64,000 bases of DNA from Alphaproteobacteria bacterium (GTDB lineage: Bacteria > Pseudomonadota > Alphaproteobacteria > SP197): the NCBI GenBank assembly GCA_965220805.1, contig OZ244844.1:2699753-2763752 (forward strand). The letters are read 5' to 3'. The translations under genes and the position numbers were made by a program. Every line of letters begins with the position of its first letter. Position 1 is the first letter of the stretch. The notes beneath the pieces were generated by a model. The model did no database searches. It saw only the letters and a list, made by a program, of their open reading frames with translations, and was not told the origin of the DNA. Shown piece by piece: positions 44,426 through 49,291 of the stretch.

Positions 44426-45180
44426 GAGTCCTGCTCCCGTTCCTTGACCTGGCGGGAGGTCTTGTCCAATGCCTTGCAACGGGCGTCAAGTCCCCCGTCC
44501 GTCCGGTAATGTCTCACTTTGATTTTCAAGCGGGGCAATGCGGCTACCACCTGGAGCAGTGGGCCATCAAGGCATCCAGAGTGTCGATAACATCATCGGC
44601 GTCCAGTCAACGAGAGCCGTCTTGGTAGAGGTCCATGACCAAGGTGCGATAGGCGTAGATGCGGGCCTCATTCACGAGATGTTCCCCTCTTCGGACATGC
44701 AAGAGCGGTGGTTCAAGCCTGTTCCCGCACGAACTCCTGCCAGTGCCGGACGCTCGGGAGCACCAGCGCAATTGCGACACTCGCCGCAGCGACAGTCCCG
44801 CAACAGATGGAATGTTGCTGTGAACGAGGCAGCAGAAACTGAGACGGTGGACGATCTGAAGGCCACAATCCTCACACTCGTCACGCGCACCATCCCCATG
44901 ACAGGGCCTTGGTGGTTGATCCGAGTCGGACTGACATTGATCCGGATACAGGCACCGACAATAGTCGAGCGACCTGGGGATGGAGGAAGATTGGCATGGC
45001 ACCCGCACCCGGATCGCTGCAGTCGATATGTGGAGTCAATCCCATGTCGCGACCCGCTGTCGTCGCGCGCCTCCTGTCCGGTGCGTTCCTGAAGCCAGCG
45101 CCTTATTTGCGATTCTTCCATCATACGATAATATGGCCGCCGCTGTTTTCATTCTCGCAAACAAGGAGCGTCGCGCCGCA

Positions 45181-46350
45181 ATGGCCTCCGATCCCGGTCG
45201 CCGGCCGCACGGCCACGACGTGCAAGGTCCAAGCGGCTACACCGCCTTCGTGCCGGCCCCGCTGGCTCCACCCATCGCATGGGACGCAGAACTCGTCGTT
45301 GCGCTCTCCGGGGCGGACCGCGCGATCGGCCGGCTTGCGGGCGAAGGCTGGCGCTTTCCCAATCCGCATCTCTTCATCAACCCGTTCCTTCGCCGGGAAG
45401 CGGTGCTCTCAAGCCGGATCGAAGGCACTCGAACAACCCTCGAGGAACTGCTCGCGGCCGAGGCGGGCGCGGCCGTCGGGCCAGCCTCCGATGATCTCGA
45501 GGAGGTCGTCAACTACGTTGAGGCCCTGGAGTACGGATTGGAACGGCTGGATACGCTGCCGCTGTCCTTGCGTCTCATCCGGGAGGTCCATGAACGGCTC
45601 ATGCGCGGCGTGCGCGGCGACACGGCGACGCCCGGTGAGTTCCGGCGCAGTCAGAACTGGATCGGACCGCCCGGCTGTAGCTTGAGCGAAGCGAGCTACG
45701 TGCCGCCGCCCGCCGGCGAACTCATGGCCTGCCTAGACGCCCTGGAGCGATTTCTTCATGACGACACCCTGCCGCCGCTGATTCACGCCGGACTCGCACA
45801 CGCACAGTTCGAGGCCATCCACCCGTTTCTCGACGGCAATGGCCGTGTGGGCCGCCTTCTCATCACTCTTCTGCTGGTGCAGCGTGACGTGCTGCCGTCG
45901 CCGCTCCTCTATCTGAGCGCATACTTCGAGGAGACGCGCGATGAGTACTACGCCCGTCTGCTCGCGGTGACGCAGGAAGGGGCGTGGGAGAAATGGCTCA
46001 GCTACTTCCTGCGCGGCGTCCGGCTTCAAGCCGACGACGCAATTGTTCGCATGGAGGAGATCGACGGTCTGTTCGAGGACTGGCGGAAACATCTGGCCGG
46101 CGTTCAGTCCGGGCGACCGGAGAGGGTGCTGCGCCTCTTTGTCGAAAACCCCTACTGGACCGTGGGCGGGATCGCAGACGAGCTGTCTGTGGCCTATACG
46201 ACGGCTCGGCGCGCCATCGACCGTCTGGAAGCCGCAGGAATCGTCTCCCCGCTGGGGGAAGCGAAGCGCAACCGCGTCTATTGTGCCAGGCAAATGCTGG
46301 AGGTGCTGGTAGCGCCCCACGCCTCGGGACGACCTGCCTCTTACAGTTGA
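45181..46350 (+). CDS. Fic-domain protein (class II, N-terminal inhibitory helix, C-terminal wHTH)
   Basis: HPFLDGNGRVGR catalytic motif, SSRIEG inhibitory motif; RBS AAGGAG. Confidence 0.92.
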   Translation: MASDPGRRPHGHDVQGPSGYTAFVPAPLAPPIAWDAELVVALSGADRAIGRLAGEGWRFPNPHLFINPFLRREAVLSSRIEGTRTTLEELLAAEAGAAVGPASDDLEEVVNYVEALEYGLERLDTLPLSLRLIREVHERLMRGVRGDTATPGEFRRSQNWIGPPGCSLSEASYVPPPAGELMACLDALERFLHDDTLPPLIHAGLAHAQFEAIHPFLDGNGRVGRLLITLLLVQRDVLPSPLLYLSAYFEETRDEYYARLLAVTQEGAWEKWLSYFLRGVRLQADDAIVRMEEIDGLFEDWRKHLAGVQSGRPERVLRLFVENPYWTVGGIADELSVAYTTARRAIDRLEAAGIVSPLGEAKRNRVYCARQMLEVLVAPHASGRPASYS

Positions 46351-46596
46351 ACGGCTTCTCCCCCGGGAGGATTGGAGTCAGAACGCAATCTGGCCGTCGC
46401 TCACCATGATTCGCGTGTCGCCGCTTCCGCCACCCGCGACGCGGCGCGCCTCGATGAGGGTCATCGCGTCGGCGTGACGCCCCTCGCACAGTTCCTGCCT
46501 CGATGGCTTGATCTCGACAAGGTGGGCGAAGTGCTCGCGGAAGGCGACGACGTCCCTGCGGGGCCAGAGTGTGTCTTGCCTGTTAACGATGCCGTC

Positions 46597-48447
46597 TCAC
46601 GGAGGCCAGGACCAGTAGTCGACTCCGAACGTGTACGGGTCGTCCTCAGGCGTAAGACCACACTTCTGCATGGCCTCGTCCTTGAAATGGGTCGCGCACT
46701 GCCGATTCTCGTCCGCGACCGATCCGTCATCGCTGACAATCCACTCCAGACATGAGGCAATCAATGAAACGAGCACGTTGTGACAGTCGTGTTTATCCTG
46801 CGGGAGTTCAAAGGTGTAATCTTCCGCGGTGAAAACACGCGTCCCTACCTGCATTCCCGGACCGAGTAAGATGTTCGACGAACTGAAGCCCTCCAGGGTC
46901 ACCACCTTTCTCTCGGTGCGCCCTTGGCCGCCGTCCTCCTCCGACTCAGAGCACGTCCCGTCGACGCTCTCGCTATCGCGCCACTCACAGGTCAGGGTGT
47001 CGCCATTGGCCCAGAAAAACGTGCCCTTACCGTGCATCTTGCCGTTACGGAATTCGCCCTCGAAGCGGAAGTCGTCCCCGGTATAGGTCCCCGTGCCGTG
47101 CGGCCATCCGTCGCGCATGCTGCCCTCGTACGTGTCCACGCCGTAGCTGTGGCGCCAGACATACCGCCCTTCACCGGACGCCTTGCCATCCACGCAAGGA
47201 CCTGACCACGTCACGGTCTCGCCGGGCTCGGGGTAAGGGTTCCGGAGTTGGCAGGGCTGGTTCTCCGCGACGATCCAGTTCGGCCCGAAGGGCTCGAGCG
47301 GCGCATCGGCCAGCAGCGCCTCGACCTGTGCGCTCGTCAACTCTCCGGTCGCCGCGTACCCGTTCGCCTGCTGCCAGCCCTCGATTGCCCGTCGGGTCCT
47401 CGGGCCGAACTCTCCGTCCGCAGGCCCGGGGTCGAAGCCCGCAGCGGCAAGCGCTTCCTGGATCCGCCGGAGTTCGTCCGAACCCAGCGCCGCCGCTTCC
47501 CCTTGTCCCTGGCAGGCCAGGTCGTGGCCACCGGCGCGGTCGAGGGCGCGATGGATCGGGCTCCCTTGGGTGGCGATCGAATAGGGGTAGAAGCCCTCTG
47601 CGTCGCGGATGCAGGGATCGGCGCCGCCGGCCAGCAGGGCCTCCGCCACCGCGACCTTGCCGCCCGTGCGAACCGCCGCATGCAGCGGGGCCTCGCCGTT
47701 GGGGTACCTGCGGTCGGGATCGGCCCCGGCCTCGATCAGCAATGCCGCGGTCTCGCCCGAGCCGATGCCCTCGCGAACGAACAGATTCAGCGCCGGCAGC
47801 CCGTCGCCGTTCTCGAGCCGCGGATCGGCGCCGCCGGCAAGAAGCGCCCCGACGATGCCGGGCAAGCCGGCGCCGGAGCGCCCGGGCCAGCCCGGATTGG
47901 GCCCCACCGCGGCATGCAGCGCCGTGGCCCCCCAGCGGTCCCTGCGATTGGCGTCCGCGCCATGGGCAAGCAGCGCCTCGACCGCTCTCGGCTGTTCGTG
48001 GTGGGAAGCAACAAGGTGCAGCGCCGTGCGCCCCTCCCCGTTGGCGATGCCGGGATCGGCTTGTGCCCCCAGCAGCAGCCATATGGTGGCGACGGCCCCG
48101 CTCAGAAGCGGGGCGGCACTGGCCAGGTGCAGCGGCGTGTTGCCGTCCCTGTCCTGCAGGTTGGGATCGCCGCCGGAGTCCAGCAGCGCCTGCATCGTCT
48201 CGGCCGCGCTGATCGCGGCCGCGCCATGCACCGCCGTCCGGCCGTTGCTGCCGGGCGCGTTGGGATCGGCGCCCTTCGCCAACAGGGACCGCACTTCGTT
48301 CGCATAGCTCTCCGCCTGACCGGCAAGCTGGCGAAGGCGCGCGTCGTCGTCGGTCTCGGCATGAGCGGGGGCGGCGCCGAGCACAAGCACGAAGAGGCTC
48401 GCAACGACCGCCAGGACCGACGCAGACACGGGACGGGACTTCAGCAT
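46597..48447 (-). CDS. Secreted ankyrin-repeat + peptidoglycan-binding + MORN-repeat protein
   Basis: Signal peptide (APAHA), ~6-7 ankyrin units, IQEALAAAGFDPGPADGEFGPRTRRAI, YEG..RDG..HG.G MORN units; AGGA-rich RBS. Confidence 0.88.
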   Translation of the reverse strand: MLKSRPVSASVLAVVASLFVLVLGAAPAHAETDDDARLRQLAGQAESYANEVRSLLAKGADPNAPGSNGRTAVHGAAAISAAETMQALLDSGGDPNLQDRDGNTPLHLASAAPLLSGAVATIWLLLGAQADPGIANGEGRTALHLVASHHEQPRAVEALLAHGADANRRDRWGATALHAAVGPNPGWPGRSGAGLPGIVGALLAGGADPRLENGDGLPALNLFVREGIGSGETAALLIEAGADPDRRYPNGEAPLHAAVRTGGKVAVAEALLAGGADPCIRDAEGFYPYSIATQGSPIHRALDRAGGHDLACQGQGEAAALGSDELRRIQEALAAAGFDPGPADGEFGPRTRRAIEGWQQANGYAATGELTSAQVEALLADAPLEPFGPNWIVAENQPCQLRNPYPEPGETVTWSGPCVDGKASGEGRYVWRHSYGVDTYEGSMRDGWPHGTGTYTGDDFRFEGEFRNGKMHGKGTFFWANGDTLTCEWRDSESVDGTCSESEEDGGQGRTERKVVTLEGFSSSNILLGPGMQVGTRVFTAEDYTFELPQDKHDCHNVLVSLIASCLEWIVSDDGSVADENRQCATHFKDEAMQKCGLTPEDDPYTFGVDYWSWPP

Positions 48448-49291
48448 GGTCCTGATCCTTCCTGATGATGGCGTGCGCCTCCCGGCGCACGCCGGTACGC
48501 ATGATGGTGCATGTGTCCCGACCTGCAAAGACCGGCGCGCTGCTACCGAGAGTTTGCCGGGCTGTTGACGGGGTTCCGGTCGATCCCGCTCGATTTCGAT
48601 GATGTCGGCGGTGTGTGCGGAAGTGTCCTGGTTTGACATTCTCTCCGAACGGCAACATTCCATGGTCCAGCTAGGCGGACCCTGGAGGTAGCAGCGAAAG
48701 CTCTCTATCGCATCGACTCGCGCCACATTCTCCGGCGACTCGGATGTTCCAATCTGTCCTTCGTCCGTGCCCGAGTTGCACCACCACCGGCACTGACCAA
48801 GGCACCAGGCAGCCCGCGCCTGGTCGACGTGCTTGGCCGCGATGGACGCGGACGCAGCGACGACCTCCACGTCGTACCATGAGCTGTCTTTACCCCCGAC
48901 CGACCAGCCGTCCGACGCATCGTGAATCGAACCGCGATTCGAGAAATGCCCATCTCCGTTGCGGCGCCAGAAGTTCCACTGAATCTGCCCTCGCCCTTCA
49001 CCTACACACCGCGCGCCGAAGACGACACACACGGACTGTGGTCCGTTGGCGTTGCCCAAACTTGGATCTGCTTGTCTTCGGTTGGCATGCTCTGCGCTCC
49101 TCATCGGCCTAGTTCAGCTTGGCCGACCCTGCGGATTCGATTCACTCCTCTGCTACTCTCCCGTGATGTCGGTTGTGTCGGCCCGCCGCGTTAAGGTTTC
49201 AACAAAGTCAAACTGAGACAATACCGTCCGTCTTTCGCCCAACACTCCTGGAGCGTTGAGACACGTTGACCGCTGGCCTATGAATCGTCCC

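Follow-up and report, generated by a model that had tools for sequence, protein, structure and literature searches.

A transposase-less cassette with IS1-type ends between ccr and an AphA-like regulator gene in an alphaproteobacterial genome

The DNA analysed here (the window) is a stretch of 64,000 nucleotides, positions 2,699,753 to 2,763,752 of contig OZ244844.1, from an alphaproteobacterium of the lineage SP197 (assembly GCA_965220805.1, here G000). This genome is complete, in one contig of 4.13 Mb (completeness 99.7%). Between the gene for crotonyl-CoA carboxylase/reductase (ccr) and that for an AphA-like (PadR-type) regulator lies a block of 4,721 bp (44505-49225) that holds two intact genes, one for a Fic enzyme and one for an ankyrin protein, together with a gene fragment and two stretches without a supported gene. 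An earlier note, made from the letters of the window, had proposed that this block is a mobile cassette that lacks a transposase and ends in the inverted repeats of an insertion sequence (IS) of the IS1 family. The features are collected in Table 1. Coordinates are window positions unless they are marked C1, for the contig of G000, or L with a number, for an extracted locus.

Table 1. Features of the cassette and of its two flanking genes
Feature	Position	Strand	Basis
Crotonyl-CoA carboxylase/reductase (ccr), flank	43190..44425	-	NCBIfam TIGR01751, 546.7 bits (cut-off 378.55)
Left copy of 8-bp target-site duplication, GTCCGTCC	44497..44504		window sequence
Left terminal inverted repeat, GGTAATGTCTCACTTTGATTTT, IS1-family type	44505..44526	+	sequence and motif search
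654-bp stretch without supported gene (decayed or non-coding)	44527..45180		no Pfam match, no codon periodicity
Class-2 Fic AMPylase with C-terminal winged helix, SoFic type, 389 aa	45181..46350	+	Pfam and PADLOC
Fragment of AbiEii-type nucleotidyltransferase toxin gene, 72 codons and stop	46378..46596	-	tblastn
Predicted secreted ankyrin/PG_binding_1/MORN protein, 616 aa	46597..48447 (stop 46597-46599)	-	Pfam
756-bp stretch without supported gene	48448..49203		no Pfam match; substitution phases 10/18/16
Right terminal inverted repeat, GGTATTGTCTCAGTTTGACTTT on the - strand (AAAGTCAAACTGAGACAATACC as read on the forward strand)	49204..49225	-	sequence and motif search
Right copy of target-site duplication, GTCCGTCT, one mismatch	49226..49233		window sequence
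AphA-like (PadR-type) regulator, flank	49280..49867	+	Pfam AphA_like, 1.4e-30

The 22-bp inverted repeats described in the earlier note are present at both ends of the block, and on recomputation the two arms are identical at 19 of 22 positions. The flanking direct repeats, GTCCGTCC and GTCCGTCT, agree at 7 of 8 positions, again as the note had it, and by hand arithmetic the chance of at least 7 of 8 matching flank bases is ~25/65536. The 18-nt core of the ends, GGTAWTGTCTCASTTTGA, has exactly two matches in the window with up to three mismatches, and these are the two ends themselves. The number expected by chance is 0.03, and none of 100 shuffled windows reached two matches. The end pair is short, and it is the motif search alone that makes it conspicuous: it is absent from the 25 longest inverted repeats of a general repeat listing, in which longer, poorer, G+C-rich chance pairs rank higher. 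The composition profile does not show a sharp boundary of the cassette.

The AphA-like gene was sought in all 23 genomes of the genus, and each flank was then aligned separately in the loci returned. In 10 of the 22 other genomes (G001, G005, G019, G013, G015, G006, G012, G010, G011, and G002), the two flanks adjoin directly, without the insert. G001 has the exact empty site. Its flanks are 96.4% and 94.8% identical to those in the window, the left flank runs to locus position 2137 and the right flank begins at 2144, the two overlapping by exactly 8 bp, and the join contains a single GTCCGTCC, reading ...CCCCCGTCCGTCCATCG... (...GTCAAGTCCCCCGTCCGTCCATCG...). Thus, the empty site with one copy of the target, which the earlier note had suggested looking for, exists in a congener, and the inverted ends, the 8-bp duplication, and this empty site together bear out an insertion of the transposon type.

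Two quite different explanations of the repeats can be judged from the same alignments. One is that two unrelated solo ends, or MITEs (miniature transposable elements with inverted repeats), lie by chance on either side of resident chromosomal genes, so that the block never inserted as a unit. Solo ends in direct orientation do occur in the genome, at C1:99099 and C1:101042, both on the + strand. However, ten congeners lack the entire 4.7 kb together with its two ends, and the single 8-bp target copy of G001 lies exactly at the join; we consider this explanation very improbable. The other is that the inverted repeats are operators of the divergent ccr and AphA-like genes, and that the block is an island integrated in some other way. 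The insert does lie in a divergent promoter region, 80 bp from the likely ATG of ccr (44425) at its left end and 55 bp from the likely ATG of the AphA-like gene (49280) at its right end. The repeats, however, are absent from all of the empty intergenic regions, the same motif bounds transposase-carrying elements at unrelated sites in other genomes, and there is no integrase among the family matches of the cassette's open reading frames (ORFs). The operator reading, which the earlier note had named as one that could overturn its proposal, has in our estimate almost no chance of being correct.

G016 and G004 also have the insert, at this very site and between the same flanks, and both are ~94-95% identical to the window in cassette and flanks alike. 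Since the identity is the same inside and outside the insert, G000, G016, and G004 share a single event: one insertion was inherited by three closely related species. The copy in G004 contains an IS630-type element (DDE_3, 372 aa) at a position equivalent to ~48671, and its ankyrin gene is tandemly duplicated, with ORFs of 757 aa and 672 aa (L040:3605-7800 and L040:7818-8936) that have 88-90% DNA identity to the window gene. Among the contig pieces listed for four public runs, each from a different study, the right junction is bridged in all four runs and the left junction in three. No empty-site joint across the insert occurs among the listed contigs of these runs, in which rare variants are dropped. 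The stretch is matched in runs labelled sponge metagenome from two studies, with contigs bridging the junctions, and two runs with this label are among the four; no RNA run is among the matching runs listed. Peaks of depth over the Fic gene and the ankyrin repeats in the four runs are due to summed contigs of other organisms at 90% likeness.

Where else do such ends occur? In a search of 61 genomes from the genus, family, and class with at most two mismatches, the end motif has 106 matches, spread over 27 genomes, compared with 5 for the reversed control. Thirteen independent inverted pairs, this cassette included, were examined, and four of them contain a full transposase (L034 in G010, L035 in G012, and both L036 and L037 in G019). 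These four elements are 2.5-2.8 kb long, with ends identical at 21-22 of 22 positions and perfect 8-bp duplications, and each has one IS1-type transposase ORF (286-321 aa as listed) together with other ORFs, the passengers. The left end of the cassette agrees with the ends of L034, an autonomous element, at 21 of 23 positions. By tblastx and blastn, the 23-nt ends are all that the cassette shares with the full elements, and nothing of the interior is shared. Thus, both further inverted pairs and an intact transposase between the same ends, which the earlier note had proposed as checks, were found in relatives. All four full elements also have an ORF of 72-78 aa upstream of the transposase on the same strand (L034:1223-1459). 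It begins V[AP][KR]GP..., is 69-75% identical among them, and has no Pfam family; its product may have an accessory or regulatory role in this IS1 branch.

The other pairs are in various states. L045, at 544 bp, retains a fragment of the transposase and an 8/8 duplication. Eight pairs have no transposase, with duplications of 8/8 in two, 7/8 in two (one of them this cassette), 6/8 in two, and at most 5/8 in two. A perfect duplication is thus found in seven related pairs, namely L034, L035, L036, L037, L045, L046, and a 739-bp element of G000 at C1:756557-757295. The last of these is a second transposase-less element in the source genome, flanked by the perfect 8-bp duplication GGGCCTTG. Its ends are degenerate, differing from the 18-nt motif at 3 and 5 positions, and it has one ORF of 145 aa, apparently after a signal-like hydrophobic stretch. 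The other transposase-less pairs span 145-2392 bp, and the cassette, at 4.7 kb, is larger.

Good copies of the motif in the complete genome G000 number four: the pair of the cassette, and the ends at C1:99099 and C1:101042 (L003:1501-1518 and L004:1501-1518), which are 1.9 kb apart in a stretch of lower G+C content (0.55-0.59). After the end at C1:99099 comes a lipoprotein-like ORF of 466 aa (L004:49-1449), which has an HExxH motif and no Pfam or NCBIfam family, while ~1 kb on from the end at C1:101042 stand the first 26 codons of the small ORF that is conserved in all four full elements. This region looks like two truncated left halves of transporter IS (tIS). In the 2.8-Mb congener G017, there are 19 end motifs and no transposase match, which suggests a burst of non-autonomous copies and then the loss of the source element. 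The passengers of the family are mostly proteins with signal peptides, as judged by eye from the N-termini; they are those of L034 and L035, that of L046, the 145-aa ORF, the HExxH lipoprotein, and the ankyrin protein of the cassette.

The assignment of the ends to IS1, which the earlier note had made provisionally, could be examined through the transposases that lie between the same ends. All four pass the cut-off of the Pfam family DDE_Tnp_IS1 (PF03400), with 27-30 bits against 24.1. Their best NCBIfam match is also IS1, at 68-74 bits, below that model's cut-off, compared with 19-24 bits for IS1595 and 23-27 bits for IS6. A database search with the transposase family returned at least 8000 clusters, all with PF03400, and the few named clusters are called 'IS1 family transposase' or 'IS1 transposase' (NCBI/JGI names). 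Furthermore, the ends of E. coli IS1A, read from NC_000913, are GGTAATGACTC.../GGTGATGCTGC... (GGTAATGACTCC... and GGTGATGCTGCC...), and the left end of the cassette matches the IS1A end at 10 of the first 11 bases. The cassette ends begin GGTAATG and GGTATTG. They have the form GGnnnTG, the ISfinder consensus for IS1-type ends. Thus, the cassette has ends of the IS1 type and a duplication of the 8-9 bp that belong to IS1 (7/8 here), and the IS1-type DDE transposase that should lie between such ends is absent from the cassette and present in the four full relatives.

The comparison with IS1 of E. coli (IS1A of K-12) shows both the kinship and the distance. The ends of that element start with GGTAATG and GGTGATG, and its InsA helix-turn-helix (HTH) region (residues 52-90) and InsB region (residues 42-161) have counterparts in the same order in the single-ORF transposases, with 22-33% identity. 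However, E. coli IS1 is 768 bp long, has two ORFs that a frameshift joins, and lacks passengers, whereas the alphaproteobacterial relatives have one ORF of ~294 aa with 22-25% identity to InsB; the classical InsA/InsB' layout was not found among them. The transposases are assigned to IS1 from the Pfam matches, the names given by the sources, and the ends (the NCBIfam cut-off not being reached), and the elements are a single-ORF branch of the IS1 family that is widespread in this bacterial class. The IS1 assignment of the earlier note was thus correct. IS6, IS66, IS256, ISL3, and IS1595 had been considered from their ends and were dropped, as the transposases scored best as IS1. For the subgroup name ISMhu11, no literature match was found.

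The cassette itself does not contain a transposase. The family matches of its ORFs are Fic_N/Fic/winged HTH and Ank/PG_binding_1/MORN only, with no transposase by Pfam, and tblastn of the four cognate transposases against the three cassette copies (G000, G016, and G004) gave best E values of 0.91-1.6 (1.6 for the window's cassette), in agreement with the earlier observation that no transposase ORF can be recognised inside. The same four transposases gave one chance match only (E = 0.27) by tblastn against the whole of G000, and a HMMER-scored genome search found 0 matches in G000, G016, and G001. PF03400 had 0 matches in G000, while control genomes gave matches. In G004, the HMMER-scored search returned one broken transposase copy, with 57% identity and two stop codons, and one weak partial match. 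The cassette is stranded, as it cannot move in its present host. Because no cognate transposase is left in the genome, it is now a fixed genomic islet.

We propose, with a probability of roughly 0.88, that the cassette is a mobile insertion cassette (MIC), that is, a transposase-less derivative of a single-ORF, passenger-carrying IS1-family element, and that it arrived in one transposition event. An IS1-type DDE transposase would have bound both ends (GGTA(G)TGTCTCA...) and cut the target with an 8-bp stagger, and a single transposition would have set the block between ccr and the AphA/PadR-like gene, duplicating the 8-bp target GTCCGTCC. The transposase would have come from another copy, acting in trans, a step for which we see slightly better than even odds. 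A point for mobilisation in trans is the existence of transposase-less family members with perfect duplications (L046 and the 739-bp element at C1:756557-757295); either such mobilisation happens, or deletion of the transposase is very common.

The alternative to movement in trans is that a complete tIS, with transposase and passengers, arrived at this site, and that the transposase was then lost by deletion in place. In full relatives with the same ends, passengers do accompany the transposase, and the 654 bp and 756 bp of non-coding debris at the ends of the cassette could once have held one. Furthermore, other truncated copies occur near C1:99099-102160, with an end, a passenger, and a truncated form of the conserved small ORF (C1:101042-102160). 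However, no coding trace of a transposase is left in the three copies, as the tblastn values above indicate, and L046 and the 739-bp element have perfect duplications and no transposase. Loss in place is, in our judgement, unlikely, though it merits consideration.

Several observations weigh against the MIC proposal. Transposition of the cassette as a transposase-less unit was not seen: it occupies a single site in all genomes searched, with no second insertion site in 401 genomes of the class, in the 23 genomes of the genus, or in a scan of genome contigs. The statement of the earlier note that the cassette spreads genes is therefore not supported, as the cassette was found at one site only, which three close species have inherited. 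The duplication falls short of perfect, at 7/8, and the inverted repeats are identical at 19 of 22 positions, compared with 21-22 of 22 in the full copies; it follows that the element has decayed, or that its ends come from two subtypes (C or G at position 13). The transposases of all four full relatives score 68-74 bits with the NCBIfam IS1 model, below its cut-off of 100. Finally, two of the eight transposase-less pairs, L038 and L042, lack a duplication, and each may be something other than a single element.

How does the cassette compare with known kinds of element? A MIC reportedly derived from IS231, MIC231 of Bacillus cereus, is an example of the class, and the parent of our cassette would differ from it in being of the IS1 family, not IS4/IS231. 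Transporter IS of the IS1 and IS1595 families are said to have been described by Siguier, Gagnevin and Chandler in 2009. The full relatives L034-L037 resemble tIS in having transposase and passengers between one pair of ends, with 8-bp duplications; the cassette has no transposase and is thus a derivative of such an element, not a tIS. A MIC has IS-type ends, a target duplication, and passengers, has no transposase, and depends on a cognate transposase elsewhere (PMC3129680, PMC3281130), and the tIS concept is set out in PMC3129680 and PMC9330008. Every feature of a MIC that could be examined is found here (ends of an IS family, a target duplication, passengers, no transposase, and an empty site), with the difference that the host genome retains no cognate transposase. 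A MITE, at a few hundred bp and without coding sequence, does not fit a cassette of 4,721 bp with two intact genes, and a composite transposon, with two complete IS copies, does not fit one that has 22-bp ends only and no IS bodies. The cassette is a well-supported, ordinary mobile element of a known kind.

The Fic ORF is listed as 44980-46350, and its likely start is the ATG at 45181. The protein matches Pfam Fic_N (4.6e-26), Fic (9.3e-20), and an HTH domain, and it matches the PADLOC model of SoFic over the full length (positions 5-358 of 361; 7.5e-120, 398.6 bits). Its score with the NCBIfam SoFic equivalog is 156 bits, below the cut-off of 550. The translation contains the catalytic motif HPFLDGNGRVGR and, toward the N-terminus, the inhibitory motif SSRIEG, and the enzyme is placed in class 2 because of these two motifs. 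Thus, all parts of the class-2 signature, (S/T)xxxE(G/N), HxFx(D/E)GNGRxxR, and a C-terminal domain, are present. The likeness to SoFic extends to the SxxxEG motif and the C-terminal winged helix, whereas the NCBIfam score is a difference, and a role in defence is suggested by sequence likeness. No signal peptide was found on the Fic protein. A 47-aa downstream antitoxin like AS1 was not identified beside it, no search having been aimed at one. According to PMC12249575, SoFic is a class-2 Fic family and an anti-phage toxin of abortive infection.

Downstream of the Fic gene is the fragment of an AbiEii-type toxin gene (codons 46381-46596). Its residues 48-69 match the middle of a 320-aa ORF in L089 by tblastn, and that ORF matches PADLOC AbiEii at 1.3e-113; the fragment itself has no family match in Pfam or PADLOC. 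A 66-bp piece of this fragment (46389-46455) has counterparts at 85-93% identity in six other genomes, one of which, G186, belongs to a different family of the class. This identity reflects a very conserved stretch of the widespread AbiEii gene.

The gene for the ankyrin protein is intact. Its Pfam matches are Ank (1.3e-28, five repeats), PG_binding_1 (2e-14), and MORN (1.3e-13). The hydrophobic N-terminus, MLKSRPVSASVLAVVASLFVLVLGAAPAHA, reads by eye as a Sec signal peptide, and this plain Sec signal and the peptidoglycan-binding domain argue for a periplasmic location of the predicted protein. The PG_binding_1-MORN module (46600-47550) recurs in 194 database proteins, almost all of them unnamed metagenomic ones, in which its N-terminal partners are ankyrin, caspase (PF00656), PF13827, SH3_3, Sel1, and trypsin. 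As far as sequence can indicate, the cassette's working cargo most likely consists of an abortive-infection Fic enzyme of the SoFic type and an ankyrin/PG-binding/MORN protein exported by Sec. The earlier description of the cargo as genes of the host-interaction type does not hold for the Fic half. That half is by its predicted function of the defence type, not the host-interaction type, because the Fic protein falls in the SoFic anti-phage family, has no signal peptide, and adjoins an AbiEii remnant. For the ankyrin gene only, the host-interaction idea is plausible, given the matches in sponge metagenomes and the reports on ankyrin proteins of sponge symbionts (see below).

The gene scraps mentioned in the earlier note are real, and consist of the 72-codon fragment and the two stretches without coding signal. 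Among the copies in G000, G016, and G004, the left stretch has 59 variable sites without codon periodicity (e.g. 15/17/18) and has no match outside the three cassette copies; the right stretch has 55 variable sites, also without a codon-phase signal. The ORFs 44538-45092 and 44672-45124 on the left were rejected as genes, as they have neither a family match nor a codon-phase signal. For the same reasons, in the 835-codon ORF 46597-49104, the 219 codons upstream of the ankyrin start were rejected as coding. The left and right stretches, like the AbiEii fragment, are most likely debris. No RNA family was found by Rfam (E up to 0.1) in 44300-49400 and no tRNA by ARAGORN in 44000-49600. A scan for sigma-70 promoters and terminators gave 0 sites, in a genome of 64% G+C in which such a scan is uninformative.

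The landing site is the divergent promoter region of ~134 bp between ccr and the AphA/PadR-like gene. Because the insert lies so close to the start codons on both sides, it must have split a regulatory region that the two genes shared. Two blocks conserved throughout the genus, CTTGTCCAATGCCTTGC and GGAGCGTTGAGACACG, flank the insertion point (44444-44496 and 49234-49279). They are now 4.7 kb apart through the cassette, and are possible candidates for regulatory sites.

This is a documented case in which one IS-type event has brought an accessory block of several genes into a locus of core metabolism, and the filled sites of this cassette can be compared with an exact empty site, with autonomous relatives, and with decayed siblings. 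The reading of the cargo is also corrected, since the Fic enzyme falls in a published anti-phage family of abortive infection and not among injected effectors. It is a speculative and rather improbable suggestion that this IS1 branch would serve, in sponge-associated Alphaproteobacteria, as a small-scale shuttle for abortive-infection genes and for proteins that are secreted or periplasmic, that the eukaryote-like ankyrin protein and SoFic would be delivered together by an IS-level route beside phages, and that the landing would have uncoupled a gene of the ethylmalonyl-CoA pathway from the neighbouring regulator. As reported in PMC13747020, phagocytosis is altered by the ankyrin proteins of sponge symbionts, and eukaryote-like proteins occur on mobile elements. 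For this reason, an IS-derived cassette with an ankyrin gene offers a small but concrete piece of evidence on the movement of such genes.

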